In this document: positions 1,965 to 50,670 of the stretch, piece after piece
Position numbering within the stretch: the first letter of the stretch is position 1
Layout: every line of letters starts with the position of its first letter
Assembly (NCBI RefSeq): GCF_035084215.1
Contig: NC_090358.1
Location: 6,882,001-6,946,000 of the forward strand
Direction of reading: 5' to 3'
DNA from: Heptranchias perlo
Lineage: Eukaryota
DNA length: 64,000 bases
Translations under genes and position numbers: made by a program
Notes under the pieces: generated by a model
The model's input: only the letters and a program-made list of their open reading frames with translations
Database searches by the model: none
What the model was told of the DNA's origin: nothing

Positions 1965-2395
1965 GGTTATACCTATCAGGAAAGATTAAGCAAGCTGGGG
2001 AGAAGGCTGAGGAGTGACCTGATAGAGGTCTTTAAGATTATGAAAGGGTTTGATAGGGTAGACTTAGCGAAGGTCTTTCCACTTGTGGGGGAGTCCAAAA
2101 CAAGGGGCCATAAATATAAGATAGTCACTAATAAATCCAATAGGGAATTCAGGAGAAACTTCTTTACCCAGAGAGTGGTTAGAATGTGGAACTCGCTATC
2201 ACAAGGAGTAGTTGAGGTGAATAGCATAGATGCATTTAAGGGGAAGCTAGATAAGTACATGAGGGAGAAAGGAACAGAAGATTACACTGGTAGGGTTTGA
2301 TGAAGAGGGTGGGAGGAGGCTCGTGTGGAGCATAAACACTGGCATAGACCAGTTGGACAGAATGGCCTGTTTCTGTGCTGTGCATACTATGTAAA
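1965..2395 (+). mobile_element. CR1 LINE 3' fragment (intact reference for the R2 empty site)
   Basis: MKGFDRVD...TRGHKYKIV...FFTQRVVRMWNSL. Confidence 0.88.
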
Positions 2396-7067: not shown

Positions 7068-8606
7068 CATACCATAACATCCCACCTGTAGTGCTGAAGA
7101 CTTGTGCTCCAGAACCAGCCGTGCCTCTAGCCAAGCTGTTCCAGTACAGCTACAACACTGGCATCTACCCGACAATGTGGAAAATTGCCCAGGTATGTCC
7201 TGTCCACAAAAAGCAGGACAAATCCAATCCGGCCAATTACCACCCCATCAGTCTACTCTCAATCATCACCAAGTGATGGAAGGTGTTGTCAACAGTGTTA
7301 TCAAGCGGCACTTACTCACCAATAACCTGCTCACCAATGCTCAGTTTGGGTTCCGCCAGGACCACTCAGCTCCAGACCTCATTACAGTCTTGGTCCAAAC
7401 ATGGACAAAGAGCTGAATTCCAGAGGTGAGGTGGGAGTGACTGCCCTTGACAACAAGGCAGCAGTTGACCGAGTGTGGCACCAAGGAGCCCTAGTAAAAT
7501 TGAAGTCAATGGGAATCAGGGGGAAATCTCTCCAGTGGCTGGAGTCATACCTAGCTCAAAGGAAGATGGTAGTGGTTGTTGGAGGCCAATCATCTCAGCC
7601 CCAGGACATTGCTGCAGGAGTTCCTCAGGGCAGTGTCCTAGGCCCAACCATCTTCAGTTGCTTCATCAATGACCTTCCCTCCATCATAAGGTCAGAAATG
7701 GGGATGTTCGCTGATGATTGCACAGTGTTCAGTTCCATTCGCAACCCCTCAGATAATGAAGCAGTCCGTGCCCGCATGCAGCAAGACCTGGACAACATCC
7801 AGGCTTGGGCTCATAAGTGGCAAGTAACATCCGTGCCAGACAAGTGCCAGGCAATGACCATCTTCAACGAGAGTCTGACCACCTCTCCTTGACATTCAAC
7901 GGCATTACCATCGCCGAATCCCCCACCATCAACATCCTGGGGGTCACCATTGACCAGAAACTTAACTGGACCAGCCACATAAATACGGTGGTTACAAGAG
8001 CAGGTCAGAGGCTGGGTATTCTGTGGCGAGTGACTCACCTCCTGACTCCCCAAAGCCTTTCCATCATCTGCAAGGCACAAGTCAAGAGTGTGATGGAATA
8101 CTCTCCACTTGCCTGGATGAGTGCAGCTCCAACAACACTCAAGAAGCTCGACACCATCCAGAACAAAGCAGCCCGCTTGATTGGCACCCCATCCACCACC
8201 CTAAACATTCACTCCCTTCACCACCGGTGCACTGTGGCTGCAGTGTGCACCATCCACAGGATGCACTGCAGCAACTCACCAAGGCTTCTTCGACAGCACC
8301 TCCCAAACCCACGACCTCTACCACCTAGAAGGACAAGGGCAGCAGGCACATGGGAACAACACCACCTGTACGTTCCCCTCCAAGTCACACACCATCCCGA
8401 CTTGGAAATATATCGCCGTTCCTTCATCGTCGCTGGGTCAAAATCCTGGAACTCCCTTCCTAACAGCACTGTGGGAGAACCTTCACCACACGGACTGCAG
8501 CGGTTCAAGAAGGCAGCTCACCACCACCTTCTCAAGGGCAATAGGGGATGGGCAATAAATGCCGGCCTCACCAGCGACGCCCACATCCCATGAACGAATA
8601 AAAATA
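7068..8606 (+). mobile_element. 5'-truncated CR1-group LINE (RT region + 3' end)
   Basis: NPANYHPISLLS, QFGFR, GVPQGSVLGP, FADD across frameshifted ORFs; 3' tail GGGCAATAAATGCCGGC...CCCACATCCCATGAACGAATAAAA, shared with fragments at 535-620, 26400-26515, 44860-45050, 47790-48170 and 56410-56575. Confidence 0.9.
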
Positions 8607-11780: not shown

Positions 11781-12647
11781 TCAGGACCAATGAATTAATT
11801 TCAAAGTGCAGTGAAAACAACAGGCTGCTCTTTTGAGAAATACATAGATCATTCACTGTGATTCCCTCCACAGATGAATAGTCACATAAGGCTCCCAGCA
11901 AAAGGTAAAAAAGGAATTGTTTTTTGGTTTACATGTTACAAGCAGAATGTCTCCATATGATAAAAAGGCTATAGAGGCACTGGAGATGGTACAAAAAAAG
12001 ATTTACAAGGATGATACCAGAATTGCGAGATTATAGCTATCAGGAAAGATTGAACAGGCTGGGGCTCTTTTCTCTAGAAAAGAGAAGGCTGAGGGGTGAC
12101 CTGATTGAGGTCTTTAAGGTTATGAAAGATTAAGATTGGGATAGACGTAGAGAAAATGTTTCCACTTGTGGGGGAGACCAAAACTAGGGGTCATAAATAT
12201 AAGATAGTCACCAATAAATCCAACAGGGAAATCAGGAGAAACTTCTTTACCCAGAGAGTGGTTAGAATGTGGAGCCTGTTATTACATGGAGTAGTTGAGG
12301 CGGATAAGGAGAAGCTAGATAAATACATGAGGGAGAAAGGACTAGAAGGATATGCTGATAGGGTGAGATGAAGTAGGGTGGGAGGAGGCTCCGTGTGGAG
12401 CATAAATACCGGCATGGACCAGTCGGGCCGAATGGCCTGTTTCTGTGCTGTACATTCTATGTAATTCTCAGGACCAACGAATTACTTTCAAAATGTTGTA
12501 GAAACAACAGAATAAGGGGGAGGGGGGCTCCCCATATGAAAAATAAATAAATCATTCACTATGATTCCCTCCACAGTTCAATAGCCAAATAAGGCTCCCA
12601 GCAAGAGGTAAAAAGAGGAACTGTTGTTGGTTTACATGTTAGAAGCA
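11781..12647 (+). repeat. ~165-180 bp direct repeat (11781-11944 / 12468-12647) flanking a CR1 insertion
   Basis: Both copies run TCAGGACCAA...ATCATTCACT.TGATTCCCTCCACAG...TAAGGCTCCCAGCAA...GGTTTACATGTTA.AAGCA. Confidence 0.85.
11945..12467 (+). mobile_element. CR1 LINE 3' fragment
   Basis: MFPLVGETKTRGHKYKIVTNKSNREIRRNFFTQRVV; 3' tail ATTCTATGTAATTC. Confidence 0.88.
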
Positions 12648-34674: not shown

Positions 34675-34770
34675 GGACCTGATAGAGGTCTTTAAGATTA
34701 TGAAAGGGTTTGATAGGGTAGACGTAGAGAAGATGTTTCCACTTGCGGGGGAGACCAGAACTAGAGGCCA
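34675..34770 (+). mobile_element. CR1 LINE fragment, left part of the host element split by R2
   Basis: Nearly identical to the CR1 copy at 2017-2110 up to ...GGCCA. Confidence 0.88.
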
Positions 34771-37700
34771 CGGCAGGAGTAACTATGACTCTGATTCTGA
34801 CTACGAGAGTGGTTGCAGCAGTCCAGTTACATTGTGGGTAACTCTCTAGAAATCTCAGTTACCTCGTGGTCCCCTCGTGGACAACAATACGACTTTCGTG
34901 TTGGCTAAACTGACAGTTCAAAGAATTCTAACGCGATCTGCGGAGATCAAGTAGCCTATAGGAGAGGGGAAAATTATTTTAGAAAAACCTTTAGATAACC
35001 CCTCGGGGCATCTCATTCCGGTTGGGATACGGACCAGGCGAAAAACCCAGTGTGTTGCCAGTAGCACCCGGCGCCAAATGTACACGCTGCGACAAAGCTG
35101 GACCTGGATAGCGGTCACGAGCTCATATACACATACTTATGAGGAGGAATTTATTCAAATTATACCAATAGGAGTACCCAATCAAATTCCATCTCAGACG
35201 GTCAATTGATTTTGTGGTGGAGAAACAACTGGGTGACAACTCTTCCAGAGTACGAGGGAGAGCAACCCCTCAGAAATAATTCCTGTGGGGCATCGCAATT
35301 GATTCGTACAAAGATGTTTTATAATTCAGGTCTCAAAATTGCATCAAAGAAGTGGAATACTGAGGAAGGTGAGATAAACACTGTCGACTCCAATTTACCA
35401 AGTACAAGCACTCACTGCGCAGCAATAAGAATTGATCCCATTAATGTGCCCAATCAATTGAAGGAAGCTACCATTCATTAGCCTAATGATAGTCTATTAT
35501 GTGTATAATGTTACGAATACCTGGATTCATATACTATATTCAAAACACCAGGTTACAAAAATAACCACTACATGTACTAAATATAGTAGGAAAAGTGACT
35601 TCCATTCGATTGCCTGCCATTGCACTAAATGCGAAGGGCAGTGCCATGCTGCCTCTGTCGGCCAATTCAGTTGCACAGTGTCCTTTAAGATTTTCAGGAA
35701 AAATTGGTTGCGGCCAGCATGAGCGACATTTACACCCAGAACTTAGGAATAAGAAGAGTTGAGGATAGCATTCCTAAGAAAAAGACCAGTAAAAGATCGG
35801 TATGGTCCGAGGATGAAATAAGGAAGCTTGTTGAATTCGGGGCCAAATTTACAGGTCCCCGGAACATAAATAAAAGGATTAGTGAACAACTGAAGTCAAA
35901 AACAAATAAACGGATCTCCGATAAAAGGAGATTTCTTACTGCCAATGCAGAGCAGGTGAGGGAGGCAACAGTAAGTACATCAAGCGCAATAATAGAATTG
36001 AACGAATCGCTCGTGCGAAGAAAATCGAGAACTCACAACGCATTGTAGCGCTACTAACAATATCCAAACAGAAGATATTTTAAAGGGTAACACTCTCCAA
36101 CGTGACATCAATAATTTACTCTTGGATGCCGAACAATTATTAAAGTGTCGGCCTGATCCTGAGGCAGAAGCCCAGGTAATCAGACTTATTGAGGTTATTA
36201 CTAAAACAATTTTGGACAATAATAATAAACCATCTGGAAATAAAAAGACTAAGGGTTTTGTAAACAAGAATCAGAAGTACAAGCCCATTGTTAAAAAGAA
36301 ACTCCAGATCAACAAAATGATACGCTAGGAAACAAGCTGCTTTTATGAGAACGTAAACTCTATTTAAAAGCGATAGAAGAAAACTTGCTCGTCAGATAAT
36401 GGGCGGACCTGCGGGAATTAAATGCCCGTTAGGTAAAGCTGAACTTGATTCATGCTTTACAAATAAACTGTCAACTGTTAACAAGGCAGACATCAGTAAG
36501 TTCGTAAGCTGCATTCAGGCGGCTAATAACATCAATCTCACGAGAGCCAGTGAGAACAAAAAGAAATCTGCTCTCGAAAGCATGGTAGTTGGGAGTGCAC
36601 CAGGTCCTGAACGGAACTACGGTCGATGACCTTAAAGACTCGAAGGAGGGGACTCCACTTTATTACCAAGGCTCTTCTCACTTTGGCTTAAAACACCTAC
36701 TATCACGAAACTAATAAAAATGAGTAGAACGGCTCCGATACCAAAAAGTGAAGATACCGAACTTCTCAAGGACATAGGTAATTGGAGGCCAATTACAATT
36801 GGCCCAATGCTGCTTAGGCTTTTCAATAAAATCACTGCCAAAAATTTAGCTGACACCATTACCTTGAACCCTAGACAGAAAGGGTTCACTGCAACCAGAA
36901 TATTGCAAAACATTATAAAAGGAAGTACAACAGAAAACAGCTAGTCGTTGTTTTCGTAGACCTAGTTAAGGCCTTCGACTCTGTGGGACACAAGTTAATA
37001 TCAAAAGCATTAACACGGCTGGGACTAAGCAAGAACTTTATAAAATTGATAGAAAATCTTTACGTAAAGACAACAGTGATCAAAGGGGCGGGATTCAAAA
37101 CCAATCCAGTTAAAATTAGTAGGGGTGTCAAGCAAGGCGACCCCCTTATCTCCTCTTCTGTTTAATATCACTTTGGACCCCCTATTGTGCTCGTTGGAGA
37201 GGGCTGGCTGTGGCATTTGGATGAAGATTAGTGATGGGCATATCAAATGCACGTTGCTGGTCTTCGCTGATGATATCGCAATAATCAGTGACTCCCATTC
37301 AGGAATGGAGCTAAATTTAAAGATCCTCGAATCATTCTGCAAAAAAAAAAACCGCCTTCTGATCATTATCAGAAAAAACGCAGGATTTCATCTGTCCACA
37401 AAGAAAAAAAATCATTCGTATATAACTATGGCAAGAACCGGCAGTTGAATGGGAAAGATCTGGCATTTGTCGATCCCGGAAGTTTTGAGAAATATCTCAG
37501 CGCCAGAATAGATCCACGGGTTGGAATACCCGAGGATAGTCGGGCAGGAAAATTAGAAAACTGGATCCAAAATTTAAAGGAAACCGAACTCAAACCAAGT
37601 CGGAAATGTGAGATCCTCAAAAGCTTTATTATCGCCAGATTTTATTTTCATTTAACTTTAAAAGGAAGCCTCTCAAAATACATTGATGAATCTGGACAAT

Positions 37701-39187
37701 GTAGTTAAAAGGTCGGCAAAAGAAATACTACATTTACCCAATCACATCACTGATGGTTTGTTATATACTAAAAGCAGAATTGTGGGTCTTAGCTTACCCA
37801 AGTTCGAATTTCAGATTCCTTCTGCAATCGTGAGAAAGCTCGATGCCTTCAAGAAGTCAACTAATTCGATTTTAAGAGTGTCTTTTTTGTTCTATGGACA
37901 GGACAATCTCGGAAATATCGAAAGATTGAGGAACCTTAATGTGCTTAAAGAAGTATCCAATTATTCTGAACCATTAAGGAAAATGACCCTAGTAACATCG
38001 CAATTGGATCAGAAGTTAGTGACACTGAAGAACAAGTTGGGAATTTGATTCCCCGCCCCCCCACCCCCCCCGAGCTGTGGAAGGAGAAAAATAAAACATC
38101 TATGCCCATTGGAGGAACTTTAAATGTTATAAATGGTCCAATTTACAATATCAGGGTTCTGGCATAATGACATAATCGCGAATAATTGGGTCAGGCGCAA
38201 TATCGGTATGAAACAATCTCAATTTATTAATGCTCTTTTAATTAGATCTAACCAATACCCCACCAGATACACCTTATCCCTTGGAAGACCCACGGCAATG
38301 AGAACATGCAGGAAGTGTGACTTGGCTAATGAAACAATGGTCGATGTCCCTCAGTTAAGAACGCAAGGATAAAAAGACACAACATAATCCTTGAGCAACT
38401 GAAGAACAACTGTCTGTGGTTAGGCATCGTATCTAGAACCCAGAATAAAGTCAGCCGATGGCAATCTGTGGAAACCAGATATAATCTTTCGTAAAGGGAA
38501 TGGTTTTATAATGGTCGATGTAACCGTTAGATTCCAAGACAGCAATAAATCACTCGAGGTGGCTTGGACTGAGAAACAGGATAAATACAGAATGTTGGCA
38601 TTTGCTATTAAAGGCCTTACTGGCCGAGAGACTATAAAAGTTTTTGGCTTTGTAATGGGTGCCTGGGGAAAATGGTTCAAAAAAAATAACTGATGAAATT
38701 CCTCAAAATTGACCACTATAAAACTTGTGTGTGTAGAATTTCAAGGCTCACAGTGCAGCTTACACCGGACATTTTGCATATTTTTATGAACTTAATATAT
38801 TGTTTTTATATATTTTTTTAAAAATAGATTTAACATGTTTTATAATTTTTGTATGTTATATTTTAAGCAGTCCAATTTTTATTTATATGATTTTAATTAT
38901 TTTATTATGCTATATTTTAATGTTGCGATTTTAATTATTTTATCTATTTGATATTTTATTAAACGGAATACAAAATTCCAGTTTATCTCCCTTGAGTAAT
39001 CCAATGCTTGGTGTTATTCTGTGACACCTCCTTTTATATCACAACGGCCTGTCTTCCCTCTCCCTATACACCAGCTGCTCCCCCTTGTCTGAGATATTTC
39101 GCCGGAATTGACATAGTGGACAAGCCACTTAAACACTTGAAATATACACTCATTTAATGGATTTTGATTCCAAGAGTGTACTTAAAG
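34771..39187 (+). mobile_element. R2 non-LTR retrotransposon (R2-A-like), both ends present, inactivated
   Basis: Fragments in order: three decayed Zn fingers (35500-35740, including HSIACHCTKC and GCGQHERHLHP), Myb (KRSVWSEDEI...KTNKRISDKRR), RT (SAPGP, NWRPITIG, LNPRQKGF, DLVKAFDSV, GVKQGDPL, FADD), CCHC-like CRKC..NET, and restriction-like endonuclease (KPDII..MVDVTVRF..EKQDKY); many stops and frameshifts; 28S-like 5' leader. Confidence 0.93.
34772..34913 (+). ncRNA. Degenerate HDV-like R2 ribozyme with 28S-derived leader
   Basis: P2 TCAGTT (34855) pairs with AACTGA (34908); P3 ACC-TCGT-GGT; P4 hairpin CAACA..ACGA-CTT-TCGT..TGTTG; J4/2 GCTAA; L3 and P1 are decayed. Confidence 0.65.
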
Positions 39188-39415
39188 TAGTCACTAACTA
39201 ATCCAATGGGGAATTCTGGAGAAACTTCTTTACCCAGAGAGTGGTTAGAATGTGGAACTCGCTCTCACAAGTAGTTGAGGCGAATGGCTTCAAACACACG
39301 AGGGGAAAAGGGATAGGGTTAGATGAAGTAGGGAGGGAGGAGGCTGGTGTGGAAAATTAACATGGGCTGGACCGAATGGCCTGTTTCTGTACTGTACATT
39401 CTGTGTAACTCTATG
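39188..39415 (+). mobile_element. CR1 LINE 3' end, right part of the host element split by R2
   Basis: Resumes at TAGTCACTAA...GAAACTTCTTTACCCAGAGAGTGG, collinear with the copy at 2122-2395. Confidence 0.88.
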
Positions 39416-42400
39416 ACAGTGGCTGGATTTGATGCTATATCCTAGAGGTGAAAACCCAGTGTCTAACTCGTCCCCACCAGCCAGTTTCCCCCAGCCGCTC
39501 AATTTTTGATGGTAAATTGGCGATCACACTGAGGCTCCACAAAGTGGCAGACATGGAAATGAAGAAAATGTCACACTGGGCACCGCAGAAGGGGGCACTA
39601 TACTGAAGCACATTGTTGGGCAGAGTGATATGTACCCGAGCTAGGAGCACTTGGTGCTGACAAGTCAGGGCCGGAAATGGAAAGTGATCCATTTTCCAGC
39701 ATTGCTATGCTTCACCTCCTACGAGCAAAGTGAGACGACACAAATCCCGAAACTGGGATCATCGATGAAGACAAGTTGTTCAGATGCACCCCTGAAGACA
39801 GAAGGGGCATAGGTGAATTGGGACTGATGTTTGTGGGGTCTAATAACCTTGTCCTGTTTCGAAAAATTTTGATTCTTAACTTTTAGAACTAACATCAAAC
39901 CTTGCACCAGAGGTGGCTGGTTTGATTTGCCATGAAAGCAACAAGCAACTGGAAATCCTGCTCCATGTCCATCCACTCCCGAGACAACCTGGTCAAAACC
40001 CAGTGCCATCCAGCCTGACTGCAACTCAAACCTGGGTCTCTAAGCCCAATCCCAACACCAAGCAGTTTGCGGTTACCTGCTCAACTTACTCAAATTCACC
40101 AACCCATTGGAGCGCCCAACAATTCTGGACGATGGCCGCAGATCCCCTTAAGTCTCCGCTCCCCGGAACACCCAATCGGTCCCAAGCTAAACAGCCTCAA
40201 ATCAGTGCCCATCGCCACGATCTCTCAGCAGAAAACACAAAGGTCCCTGAGCCAGAAACAGGACAAACCAATATTCAGACTCTGTATTCAGGTCTCTGTT
40301 TGCCTGCACAACAGTCACTGCACATCAAAAACAAAACATGGGACTGTGGGTTGGGATGGTAAGAAAGAACGTGTGTTTATTTAGCACCTTTCACAACCTC
40401 AGGACATTCCAAAACGCTTTACAGCCAATGAAGTACTTTTGACGTGTGGTCACTGTTGTAATTTAGGAAACGTGGCAGCCAATTTGCGCACAGCAAGGTC
40501 CCACAAGCAGCAATGTTAACAATGACCAGATAATCTGTTTTTAGGAGTTGACTGAAGGATAAATATTGGCCAGGCCACCGGGGAGAACCCCCCAGCTCTT
40601 CTTCGAATAGTGACGGGGGATCTTTAGGCCTTCAGGCCTTATCCAAATAGCAGTCTCTGAGCGAGCAGCACTTTCTCGGTGCAGAGTGTCACAATAGAAG
40701 GGCAAGCATAAGAAAAAAAAATGGACACCGAGCAAGGTACAAGAGGGATGCCTGTTCCTGTGGGACCAAACCCTAGCAAGAGTCTGTGCTTTCAGGAAAA
40801 GAGAGGGGAGAAAATTGGGGCGGGGAAAAGAGTTAACCTTTAGCTAGTTAGAAACCAGGTGTGCTGAGGGTCAGTCTGTCCTGGATTGAGACTGGCCAAA
40901 CTCAACGAGCTATTTAAACAGTGAGAGATCAGGTCTTCATGCAGCTAGGGCACAGCTGCATTTCTTTCTCTCTCCTCTCCCCCCCCCACCCCGCCCTCCA
41001 CAAGTGAAAGGCTAGAGTCCCCCACCCATAATACTGCATCCTAACACCCCAGCAAGCTCCCACTGAGTGAACTATGTTTCATACCACTCATCGAGGATTT
41101 CAGACCGAAAAAAAGCATTTTTGTGGTAAAATCACAAGTGCATTTGCAATGCAATTATTTCCCCTTTAGTGTTGACTTTTCAGTTTGCAGCCCTTTGGTG
41201 CAATGCAGATACAAGTTAGACAAAGTGAGGCTAGAACATGGAATGCATTACATTATAATAGTCTATTGAAGACAAGTCAGTTGGAGAGAGAGAATTAGAT
41301 AAACACTTGAGGGAAAATATTACAGGGCAACAGGAAAGAGCAGGGAACTGGGATTAGAGAATTCCAATGGGGGAGCTAACAATGGGCTAAGCAGCCTCTT
41401 GTGGGCTGAAATTTCTATTAATCTATAAAATGGCTTTAAATTAAAGAGTCAAAAAAACAGAATCCAGGCAAAGCATTTTCTCCTCTCCACACCCACCCCA
41501 ACTCAGAATGAACAGAAACCAGTTCCTAAACTATTCTTATATTTTTAAATTAAGCTAACCTTTACTGAAGTGAAATGAATCTGTACACTTACTACTTTCT
41601 CCATCATGCTTTGTTACTCCTAGTTTATGCTGGTTAGAGGCAGCCCTGAAGCAGACATTTTGTATAGAACTCATGCGACATCATTAATGGGGAATAATAC
41701 CCACAAACCACTGCCCCATTGATGAGGTCACAGGGGGAGGAAAAGAGAGATTTAACCTGCAGTTCCAACACGGCCTGTTAGAGAGTAACCGCCTTGTGCA
41801 GTTCCGTTCAGTTATGGGGGTCACAGAGACCAGGGAGGTCATAAGCCCCACCCGCACTGCTGCAATTGACCTCAGCACCTCTGAGCTAGACGGAAAACAA
41901 ACCAGCCAGGGTTCCTGCTCCTGAACTCTCTCCAATCAGCCCCCTCAGAATGCGTATCGTGTTGACGCTCTCAAGACTCACGTGAGAAAGGGGCAACTGA
42001 TCGAGGAACCAGAGGGCGGTTGGAATCAGTGGAACAGCATCACAGCGAGAGTCGGCAGGTTCAGTTATTGGAGAAATTTAGAAATTAAACATTAAAAAAA
42101 AAAGAAAATGAGGAGTGGCAGTCCACCGATCTCTCAACTTCATATCATTGCTCCAGCAAACATTATATATATAAACACTCCTTTTATCCCGGGAAAACGA
42201 GCATGGTTTCAACTGTTGGCTATAGAAGAATCATCTGCAATCTTAAATGCCAAGGAGTGTGGTGTCAGGGGATAGACCAGTATCAGCACCAAGGTCAGGT
42301 GCAGCACAGACTGGATACAGACTGCCTACAGCTCCCTCTACTGTGCCCCGACAATTTGCTTCAGTCCCTACCTCAAAGCAGCTTCTCCCGATTGCACCAG

Positions 42401-46810: not shown

Positions 46811-46884
46811 TCTTACCTCTGAGTGCGTGCAGTACACAAGACTTAACACAGTCTATGGATCATTACATACTCCCGTTCACTCAC

Positions 46885-47652
46885 CTCCCTCTGTGCAACA
46901 CTGAACACGATGGCACTCGCCATGTGCTGCTTTCGGATGCCGCTCCACCGTGTCCGGTAGTCGGCGATGGGAAGCCCCGGCTTCACGTACTTGTCGTAGA
47001 CGACGTCGCCCTGATAGTTGACGATGCTGCACCTGGCCACTTCGCCGAGGCGCCCGCCGGGGCCTGTGCCCACCATCTCGCAGTCGATCGCCACGCACTT
47101 GGCGGCCTTGCGACAGAAGCTTGGCGGGCTCACTGGGCGGGGGGTCACCGCAGCCGCGGCCAGCGAGAGTTCACCGGGGTTCGCGAGAGCCAGTGCGTCT
47201 GCCATTTGTGCCGGGGGGTCCCTCTTGCTGGCGGACTTTGGAAATATGGTAGGGTGGCCGTTTTCCACTTTAGGCTGGGGGACACCAGACAAGGTGGAGT
47301 GATTCCCATCTACATCAGAACGGCACGGCCGCTCGGCTTTTCTAGACTGAACCGTGCAGTTTGGTTTCTTGGAGCGTGGGCGCCGAGGTCGGTCGGCCAG
47401 CCCTTCCTTCCCTTTGAACCGTCTCTTCTTCAGGATCCCTTCTCTCTCCAGAAACGCCTTCCGCTCCCGGAAGCGTTCGTGCCTCCGGCTCGGCTTCTTC
47501 TTGCGCTTCCCGGACCGGCTGTCGGAGCAGCCGGGGCCCGGCGTCGAGCCAGGCGTGCAGCCGAGGAACTGGGCCGAGCTGGAGAACCCGTGGAACCGCC
47601 GCCTGGCGGCCGGGGAAGCAAGGTCCACTCTCGCGTCGGCCACACTCGGCAT
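46885..47652 (-). CDS. AEN: Apoptosis-enhancing nuclease, coding exon 1
   Basis: Basic NLS/NoLS-like N-terminus ([28 protein letters not shown]) then [26 protein letters not shown]; acceptor at 47691-47692, in-frame TAA just upstream of the ATG; GAG|GTGAGT donor. Confidence 0.92.
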
Positions 47653-47789
47653 CTTTTAATCACAGCTGGAGTGCGGGGGCCTCTCGGAACCTGGAAAACA
47701 GAAGAAACTTTTAATCCCAGGGGAGAGTCGCAGCAATAATCTAACATGGTGCACCACAGAATGCTGACGCACGGTGCTGCACCTTTTTT

Positions 47790-48170: not shown

Positions 48171-48821
48171 GTAGTTCATCACCCAGCGAGACCCTGATTT
48201 GAAACGTGCCACCCGTGGGAGGTGCTGATATAGAAAGAAAAAAGGCCCGATCGTTTGATCTACAATTGGGACCCTCAATGCCTCAGAGCTCTTGGGTTTG
48301 GGAAGGAAACGTCCGGTGCACATTAGCGATGCTAAACACTAGTAAATGGAATATTTCCCAGGAGCAGGCTCAACTATGCGTCTGCCCGGGGTTCAATAAG
48401 AATGTCAGCCTTGGCTCAGTCGGTAGCACTCTCACCCGAGTCAGAAAGTGGCGTGTTCAAGCCCCGCTTCAGGATTTGAGCTCCTAACCGCGGCTGGCAG
48501 GCCAGTGCAGTGGAGAGGGAGTGCTGCATTGTCAGGAGGTGCCGAGATGTTGCGTTAAACCAAGGCTCGGGTAGATGAGAAGATCCTGCGGCACTATTTG
48601 AAGAGCAGAGAAATGCCCTGGCCAACACGGCCAAAACCAAAAAAAAGAGATCATTAACGTCATCGGTGTTTGTGGGGTTTTGTCTGCAAAACAAGTGACA
48701 GCAATTCAAAAGTAATCTATGGTCTGCGCGCACTTTTGGATGTTTGCATTTATATAGCGCCTTTCACAACCTCACAAAGCGCTTTACAGCCAATGAATTA
48801 CTTTAAGCAGTGTTCAAGCCC

Positions 48822-49369
48822 CAGGTGAGGGGTCCGGGGAGTGGGACAGGTGAGGGGGCCGGGGAGTGGGACAGGTGAGGGGGCCGGGGAGTGGGACAGG
48901 TGAGGGGGCCGGGGAGTGGGACAGGTGAGGGGGCCGGGGAGTGGGACAGGTGAGGGGGCCGGGGAGTGGGACAGGTGAGGGGGCCGGGGAGTGGGACAGG
49001 TGAGGGGGCCGGGGAGTGGGACAGGTGAGGGGGCCGGGGAGTGGGACAGGTGAGGGGGCCGGGGAGTGGGACAGGTGAGGGGGCCGGGGAGTGGGACAGG
49101 TGAGGGGGCCGGGGAGTGGGACAGGTGAGGGGGCCGGGGGAGTGGGGCAGGTGAGGGGGCCCGGGGAGTGGGACAGGTGAGGGGGCCGGGGGAGTGGGGC
49201 AGGTGAGGGGGCCGGGGAGTGGGACAGGTGAGGGGGCCGGGGGAGTGGGGCAGGTGAGGGGGCCGGGGGAGTGGGGCAGGTGAGGGGGCCGGGGGAGTGG
49301 GGCAGGTGAGGGGGCCGGGGGAGTGGGGCAGGTGAGGGGGCCGGGGAGTGGGACAGGTGAGGGGGCCGG
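48822..49369 (+). repeat. G-rich ~25-bp minisatellite (GGGACAGGTGAGGGGGCCGGGGAGT) x ~22
   Basis: Direct reading; interrupts a minus-strand SINE (48745-48812 / 49370-49545). Confidence 0.95.
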
Positions 49370-49671
49370 AACATTCTCTGCTCTTCTTCCTGAGGGGGGC
49401 AGACGGGGTTTAACGTCTCATCTGAAAGTCGGCTCCTCCGGCAGTGCAGCGCTCCCCCAGAACTGCTCAAGGCTCGGGAGTGGGGCCCGAACCCACGACC
49501 CTCTGACTCAGAGGCGAGCGCGGGACTCGCTGAGCCACGGCGGACACCTAACGGAGGCTCGGGGCCTCAGCCTGTGGAATCTCCTCTTCCCCCCAGGAGA
49601 GAGAGGCCCCCGGGCCGGCCCGCTCACTGAGGCAGTGTCGCGAACTCTATTCCTGGGTTAGGATGATCCAG

Positions 49672-50395
49672 GCCCCCGGCCCCCCGCACTCCCCCGGCCC
49701 CCCGCACTCCCCCGGCCCCCCGCACTCCCCCGGCCCCCTCACCTGCCCCGATCCCCGGACCCCGGGCCCTCACCTGCCCCGATCCCCGGGCCCTCACCTG
49801 CCCCGATCCCCGGACCCCGGGCCCTCACCTGCCCCGATCCCCGGACCCCGGGCCCTCACCTGCCCCGATCCCCGGACCCCGGGCCCTCACCTGCCCCATT
49901 CCCCTGACCCCGGGCCCTCACCTGCCCCGATCCCCGGACCCCGGGCCCTCACCTGCCCCGATCCCCGGACCCCCTCACCTGCCCCATTCCCCGGGCCCCC
50001 TCACCTGCCCCACTCCCCGGGCCCCCTCACCTGCCCCACTCCCCGGGCCCCCTCACCTGCCCCATTCCCCGGGCCCCCTCACCTGCCCCATTCCCCGGGC
50101 CCCCTCACCTGCCCCATTCCCCTGACCCCGGGCCCCCTCACCTGCCCCACTCCCCGGGCCCCCTCACCTGCCCCATTCCCCGGGCCCCCTCACCTGCCCC
50201 ATTCCCCGGGCCCCGGGCCCCCTCACCTGCCCCATTCCCCTGACCCCGGGCCCTCACCTGCCCCGATCCCCGGGCCCCGGGCCCTCACCTGCCCCGATCC
50301 CCGGGCCCTCACCTGCCCCGATCCCCGGTCTCCGGGCCCTCACCTGCCCCGATCCCCGGACCCCGGGCCCTCACCTGCCCCGATCCCCGGTCTCC
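49672..50395 (-). repeat. 24-33 bp minisatellite (GGGGCAGGTGAGGG... on minus strand) x ~23, inverted relative to 48822-49369
   Basis: 23 TCACCTG cores counted between 49739 and 50377. Confidence 0.95.
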
Positions 50396-50670
50396 GGCCT
50401 CTCCGCTGCCGCCCGGCGCCACGTGTATCTCGGGCTCCACCTTCTCCTGCTGATTGGTCCATTCGCTTGCACCGTCCCGCCTCTCTCTCACTCTCATTGG
50501 CTGTACGGCAGCCACTGACAGACCAATCTAGCGTCTTATTGGCGGCAGTTTCTTTTAACGTCATAAAGGATGGCTGCGTCACAAGTGGGGGCGTTTAAAA
50601 AAGCGACAAGAGGCAACCGGAGCAGGGCGGATACTCGCGGGCCAACGACAGCGCCACCCAGCGGCCGGAG
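50375..50670 (-). promoter_or_regulatory. Probable AEN CpG promoter and non-coding first exon
   Basis: CpG-rich; CACGTG at 50420; four CCAAT/ATTGG boxes in 50452-50543; GC boxes; CTCF-like CAGCGCCACCCAGCGGCC at 50649-50666; first donor CAG|GTGAGG at 50375/50374. Confidence 0.65.

Follow-up and report, generated by a model that had tools for sequence, protein, structure and literature searches.

Recurrent, base-precise insertion of R2 retrotransposons into a CR1-like LINE of the shark Heptranchias perlo

R2 retrotransposons are a model of strict specificity for ribosomal DNA (rDNA), and PRINT-type gene insertion builds on them. Why, then, does a 4.4 kb R2 interrupt another retrotransposon in the shark Heptranchias perlo, and is this an isolated event? 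The copy lies at positions 34771–39187 of a 64,000-nucleotide stretch of contig NC_090358.1 (positions 6,882,001 to 6,946,000, on G000:C37 of our searches; hereafter "the window"), and it is old and broken. Its host is a long interspersed nuclear element (LINE) that we take to be of the CR1 type from the look of its ORF2 residues, and hence call "CR1-like" (translation ...RPHLEY..FWSP...RRLRGDLIE...TRGH...RRNFF..RVV..WNSLP). A preliminary description of the window, made from the sequence alone, reported a CR1 copy split with ~11 nt lost and no target-site duplication, and the sequence reads exactly so: the left half ends with GGCCA at 34770 and the LINE restarts with TAGTCAC at 39188, with 11 nt missing and nothing duplicated. 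That description further proposed that CR1 could be a genome-wide secondary target of R2, or a step toward a target switch.

We searched the 3.25 Gb assembly with the endonuclease region of an R2 protein, i.e., blind to the flanks, and obtained 152 matches (194 candidates, 150 scored). Every listed dispersed locus was fetched except C41 and C18:58.4 Mb, and matches in rDNA arrays were sampled as examples; all insertion counts given here are lower bounds. Among the 64 dispersed loci from this search, with flank classes assigned by eye, 31 ended at one and the same base of the CR1-like LINE, 4 in decayed 28S pieces and 11 elsewhere, and 18 had an unrecognisable 3′ end. For 46 random insertions, ~1e-4 to 5e-4 hits on the CR1 base would be expected by chance, against 31 of 46 observed. 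Across all fetched loci, de-duplicated by place, 77 of 111 dispersed 3′ ends adjoin ^TAGTCAC of CR1 (the caret marks the cleavage site), 4 are 28S-like and 30 fall in other sequence, a class that holds about four later-damaged CR1 sites (L009, L049, L068, L227), three internal tandem ends and about two doubtful matches. An additional 24 R2-family 3′ ends lie in rDNA arrays. Inside another retrotransposon, R2 has a real secondary target, used repeatedly and at a single base: the tabulation of flanks proposed in the preliminary description shows ^TAGTCAC junctions recurring across the genome, and a one-off event is contradicted. The 77 CR1 insertions comprise two R2 lineages, an intact full-length copy (L032) and short non-coding derivatives. 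The loss of 28S specificity and the random flanks by which R2NS is defined are not seen in this family. A TAGGC common to L074 and L076 was considered as a sign of duplication and rejected, the flanks of the two being alike in CR1 only. Junction-pattern and protein scans of metagenome contigs revealed no R2–CR1 case; in contigs of two other organisms, the CR1 site was present in its empty form and R2-like matches were patchy, with no listed piece spanning an R2–CR1 junction. The literature searched contained no description of a LINE as an R2 target, subscription papers (e.g., the STITCHR survey) and repeat databases lying outside that search.

The inserted elements can be related to R2 families still resident in rDNA. 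A search with the 3′ end of the window element gave 41 matches (58 candidates, 40 scored), and 12 near-identical R2 copies on unplaced contigs sit in 28S at ^TAGCCAAATG, with an open 1326-codon frame in 11 of the 12. One such 28S-resident frame, P0001, matched R2Tg (E = 1.9e-215) ahead of R2Bm (7.7e-86) and LINE-1 (1e-31), and its nearest named proteins are those of sharks, turtles, and birds. By this ranking, the P0001 family and the window element are assigned to lineage-A R2; the R2 identity suggested in the preliminary description was borne out, with the window copy nesting within the R2 tree of this genome. Three ZnF domains, Myb, RT, CCHC, and RLE are intact in a single ORF in both P0001 and L032. 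The 28S site AAGG^TAGC is used by this R2 family at 18 array and 4 dispersed junctions, and the window copy is in CR1. A second R2 family, 50% identical to the P0001 family, is likewise 28S-resident and includes an open 1302-codon frame (L080). Amino acid identity of CR1-resident copies to P0001 spans 97% to 40%. At the upper end of this range stands the full-length L032 (C33), in which the 1326-codon ORF is open, no motif is missing and the ribozyme core is intact; its ORF differs from the rDNA copy by 46 amino acids, two of them in Myb (K341R, S343R) and none in catalytic motifs.

Many CR1 insertions are non-coding elements of 0.9–1.45 kb, with an R2 ribozyme head and an R2 3′ tail. Copies of a first such family are 67–84% alike, and their tails find their best match in the 3′ 300 nt of the window element, within its 3′ untranslated region (UTR); tblastn of P0001 against these copies gave no match. 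For the second family (1.4 kb), 42 exact motif matches were found, and 30 of these together with 10 loci from a scored DNA search were examined, most of which end at the CR1 base. None of the 42 motif matches and none of the 40 scored DNA matches (87 candidates) fell on rDNA contigs; because no rDNA copy was found, we call these elements SIDE-like. Drosophila R2 SIDEs similarly combine a ribozyme head and an R2 3′ tail with an unrelated non-coding middle (PMC3414825), whereas the elements described here have the above lengths, are vertebrate, and were found in this assembly exclusively outside rDNA, chiefly in CR1. Two SIDE-like copies, L211 and L239, interrupt other CR1-like families, and do so at another point, within the stretch that encodes ..LE.RR.RGDL.

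As an exact 18-mer, the empty CR1 site occurs 12,795 times in the genome and the empty 28S site 582 times; CR1-group elements make up 22–34% of elasmobranch genomes (PMC13343379). When CR1 and 28S are placed in register and numbered from the cut, they have G-35, G-34, A-30, C-26, G-24, A-22, T-20, A-19, A-12, and T-5 to G-2 in common, and agree at five of the first six bases downstream. The likeness pointed out in the preliminary description at TAAGA^TAGTCA thus extends upstream, to G-24, A-22, T-20, and A-19. Bases -25/-24 and -21/-20 are those read by R2Tg, whose off-targets retain T-20 and a 4–5 nt downstream match (PMC12222951), while R2Bm requires T-6, T-5, A-3, and T+1 (PMC10499050). The CR1 spot is therefore likely used because it mimics the DNA that the R2 protein reads.

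Occupied sites are also a biased sample of the available ones. The left flank was readable at 62 of the 64 occupied sites tried, where G-24 was present in 60 of 62 compared to 2684 of 5969 genomic copies (45%; A form 3285; p = 9e-19), and T-20 in 59 of 62. Similarly, CG or CA at -36/-35 was found at 49 of 56 occupied sites (TG at 7) compared to 1008 of 2684 in the genome (TG 1676; p = 1e-14), the backgrounds being exact 29-mers imperfectly matched to one another and, for -36, genome-wide counts. This points to R2 selecting among CR1 variants, with G-24 and C-36 as candidate determinants. The two empty CR1 copies cited in the preliminary description read as claimed, at 2109 and 12192, and both are of the A-24/T-36 variant that R2 seldom uses. 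Occupancy is low, with 12 known insertions for 1008 exact C-type sites and none among the first 30 listed. An enrichment of TAGCCAC, which is 28S-like at +4, was looked for at occupied CR1 sites and rejected (4 of 77, compared to 445 of 13,240 in the genome).

The 5′ ends carry a further trace of 28S, which went unnoticed in the preliminary description: in the window copy, a short 28S tag is followed by a damaged ribozyme core (Table 1). Dispersed copies of full length open with such a tag. Of 42 tagged junctions, 23 have -28 as the first tag base, and -28 is the commonest R2 ribozyme cleavage site (PMC3774820). Of 35 copies examined, 28 showed predicted pairings between the tag and a core like that of the hepatitis delta virus (HDV) ribozyme, with both lineages and both SIDE-like families represented; Rfam returned only a sub-threshold HDV match. 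The non-pairing part of the tag stays 28S-like in all lineages, and such a tag marks an RNA that derives from an rDNA co-transcript. In CR1, 53 of 62 5′ junctions lose 0–17 nt, often with a few bases gained, and two show duplications, of 6 and 12 nt; a precise 3′ junction, a variable 5′ junction, and uncommon duplication are the pattern known for R2. The rDNA junctions are uniform and the CR1 junctions variable. The Eickbush model is said to expect variable 5′ junctions in the absence of homology, and the variability in CR1 would follow because the 28S tag, which anneals in rDNA, cannot anneal to CR1. The two kinds of site thereby test this model of 5′ junction formation within one genome.

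DNA trees arrange the copies in two ladders, and a present-day rDNA family forms the tip of each. Copies in CR1 and in 28S fragments are placed along both ladders, the window copy branches deeply, and the oldest clade is without CR1 copies. A single clade of CR1 copies was rejected (p-AU 2.5e-6) in an approximately unbiased (AU) test on a tree of 41 cleaner rows; in an earlier tree, two mis-extracted long branches (L035, L050) were disregarded. Differences common to copies are rich in synonymous changes (152 synonymous to 65 non-synonymous in L076), private differences are mostly near neutral, 27:69 (20:60 in L073, 3:23 in L074), and private stops occur in 13 of 13 middle-aged copies. On these grounds, CR1 copies appear to be defunct side branches of masters that evolve under selection.

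Taken together, the CR1 site is probably a persistent secondary target, a sink fed by rDNA masters, rather than a target switch; R2 masters, we infer, live in 28S rDNA. The step toward a target switch raised in the preliminary description is not favoured, as both lineages are still found in 28S, CR1 copies are scattered along both, and the tag of the 28S co-transcript is carried. R2 RNA would be co-transcribed with 28S and released by its own ribozyme at -28. The protein would then bind CR1 through the bases common to 28S (G-24, A-22, T-20, and A-19; T-5, A-4, A-3, G-2, and T+1) and nick the bottom strand at +1, where the 28S tail of the RNA (UAGCCA) could pair with TAGTCA at five of six positions and prime reverse transcription. 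End-joining or microhomology may join the 28S tag to CR1, with 0–17 nt lost. With >12,000 CR1 sites available compared to ~600 in rDNA, and without rDNA turnover to clear them, copies left by one master after another would build up, mostly as dead fossils, and the short SIDE-like derivatives would use the R2 machinery in trans.

Several observations weigh against CR1 being such a sink. The CR1 site holds three of the four bases required by R2Bm, T-6 of the RASIN motif being absent, and this protein differs from R2Tg in the RT6a loop residues by which R2Tg reads -25 to -23. CR1 variants mark subfamilies, so that the bias may owe something to age or chromatin; on G000:C1, the C-36 variant is evenly spread and the T-36/G-24 variant clusters near chromosome ends, this clustering being the adverse point. 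Private differences are synonymous-rich in L036 (76:56), L069 (16:12), and L032 (10:12). The remaining points would suit a dual-home lineage, or partial target switch, in which CR1-resident R2 and SIDE-like copies are transcribed by read-through, self-cleave via the 28S tag they carry, and serve as sources: in L032, ORF and ribozyme core are both intact; L032 and L046, a very young pair with both members in CR1, differ by 0.56% from each other and by 2.9% from the rDNA master of the assembly, and no rDNA copy comes equally close; and for neither SIDE-like family, with copies up to ~20–30% apart, was an rDNA-resident master found in the assembly. If so, CR1 would be a refuge from rDNA turnover, able to re-seed rDNA, and a target switch would have been caught half way. 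We consider this unlikely, however. The tag is 28S-like over its non-pairing part in every lineage, the downstream variant of L032 is absent from L046, and the missing masters can be explained by rDNA turnover and incomplete rDNA assembly. In addition, R2 is reported to lack a promoter of its own (PMC2718515), and off-target sites outside CR1 frequently read TAGC(C) (L033, L037, L085, L112, L122, L206, L212) and never TAGTC, which fits a 28S-derived RNA tail.

Two other routes to the same pattern appear much less plausible than insertion from rDNA masters. R2 cDNA could have been patched into breaks, or recombined at a fragile CR1 spot, independently of the endonuclease and guided only by a short likeness of the R2 3′ end (TATCTAAAA) and the 28S tail; the R2 3′ end of many lineage-A copies does align 8 nt into the CR1 upstream sequence. 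Lineage-B ends (GTATTTTAA/TAC) nevertheless reach the identical base, and selection for G-24 and C-36, distant from the junction, fits read-out by a protein, which makes such capture very improbable. Still harder to credit is passive spread, i.e., one or few R2 entries into CR1 followed by copying of the composite through CR1 retrotransposition or segmental duplication. A single base is common to all CR1 insertions, and one true duplication exists, an inverted pair ~8 kb apart derived from one SIDE-in-CR1 insertion (L237/L238, C7:41.47–41.49 Mb), the sole CR1 duplicate pair. However, 5′ junctions vary by copy, between a loss of 17 nt and a duplication of 12 nt, the inserts represent two R2 lineages and two SIDE-like families, and in five sister pairs the downstream flanks are alike only across their CR1 part. 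The rejection of monophyly largely refutes passive spread.

Among the closest known systems is R2Tg, a lineage-A R2 of the bird/turtle group (PDB 9dou/9nl3; 9nl2), which has the same three ZnF-Myb-RT-CCHC-RLE order, AAGG^TAGC site, tag to -28, and precise 3′ end. Its 1530 off-target loci were made in cells (PMC12222951), whereas here one natural repeat position accounts for 77 of 111 dispersed insertions. R2Bm and Drosophila R2 likewise have copies outside rDNA, at near-cognate sites, which were judged to be non-sources (PMC10499050, PMC2718515), but these are described as rare and 1–2% divergent, unlike the single recurring site and 97% to 40% amino acid identity found here. Non-canonical flanks are also known from R2 families whose specificity has changed or been lost (PMC5035012) and from sponge R2-like elements (PMC13188248); in the present case, 28S is still used and a second precise site is added. 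Sharks have R2 according to a survey that defines R2 by 28S flanks (PMC13188248), and surveys of this design would miss CR1-resident copies. The CR1 insertions offer a natural map of R2 off-target insertion, i.e., a germ-line data set where thousands of copies of one site include variants that R2 used and variants that it passed over, and add SIDE-like elements of vertebrates. They are also a fossil record of R2 lineages. Turnover of rDNA normally erases old R2 copies; CR1 preserves a graded series from two lineages, in which lineage birth, loss, and rates are readable in one genome.

The window element itself shows the R2 domain order named in the preliminary description, with every domain remnant in its place and all of them broken (Table 1). 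Its ORF is 29–61% identical to the active rDNA copy P0001, segment by segment. The second Cys of ZnF2 is changed to Tyr, the CCHC His is deleted, and stops or frameshifts run across all domains; RT was the sole domain recognised by Pfam.

Table 1 Features of the window, with positions counted from its first base
Feature	Position	Strand	Description
Empty CR1 site	2080..2138	+	Disfavoured T-36/A-24 variant
RT pieces from another LINE	7326-8590	+	
Empty CR1 site	12163..12221	+	Disfavoured T-36/A-24 variant
Host CR1-like LINE, left half	34676..34770	+	ORF2 C-terminus ...ETRTRGH; C-36/G-24/T-20 variant; retained to -11 of the cut site; 92–97% identity to six empty C-type copies
28S rRNA tag	34770..34792	+	28S positions -30 to -8, 22/23 match; base 34770 common to CR1; predicted P1 5′ strand of the ribozyme
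Degenerate HDV-like ribozyme core	34855..34914 (approximate)	+	P2, P3, P4, and J4/2 GCTAA discernible; L3 and P1′ damaged
Broken R2 ORF	34961..38791	+	ZnF3, ZnF2, ZnF1, Myb, RT, CCHC, RLE; numerous stops/frameshifts
ZnF3 remnant	35494	+	First in R2 order
ZnF2 remnant	35573	+	
ZnF1 remnant	35666-35729	+	
Myb remnant	35800	+	
RT remnant	36783-37274	+	FADD
CCHC remnant	38307	+	
RLE remnant	38469	+	KPD
R2 3′ UTR	38792..39187	+	Final 78 nt 81% identical to active rDNA R2
CR1-like LINE, right half	39188..39416	+	Restarts precisely at +1, TAGTCAC
Open frame	46846-47655	-	Ends ...VAIDCEMVG; presumably resembles a DEDDh exonuclease exon
GC-rich tandem repeat	48800-50600		

Some further R2 arrangements were seen outside the window. 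A cluster of tandem R2s at an rDNA edge (G000:C12:63.96–64.30 Mb; L038–L041, L070, L072, L079, L082) retains older lineage-A copies, in units of a lineage-A copy, 7–10 nt of 28S-like sequence and then another insert, with a 7.8 kb period. In L007/L067, L088, and L107, tandem R2 or SIDE-like ends are directly followed by another 5′ part, as template jumping predicts. A 5′-truncated rDNA R2 (L064, C1523:31600–37400) has an inverted upstream 28S copy as its 5′ junction, of the snap-back type. Finally, two R2 proteins of Scyliorhinus torazame, P0003 and P0006, lie on contigs of 255 kb and 487 kb, which hints that a second shark has copies outside rDNA.

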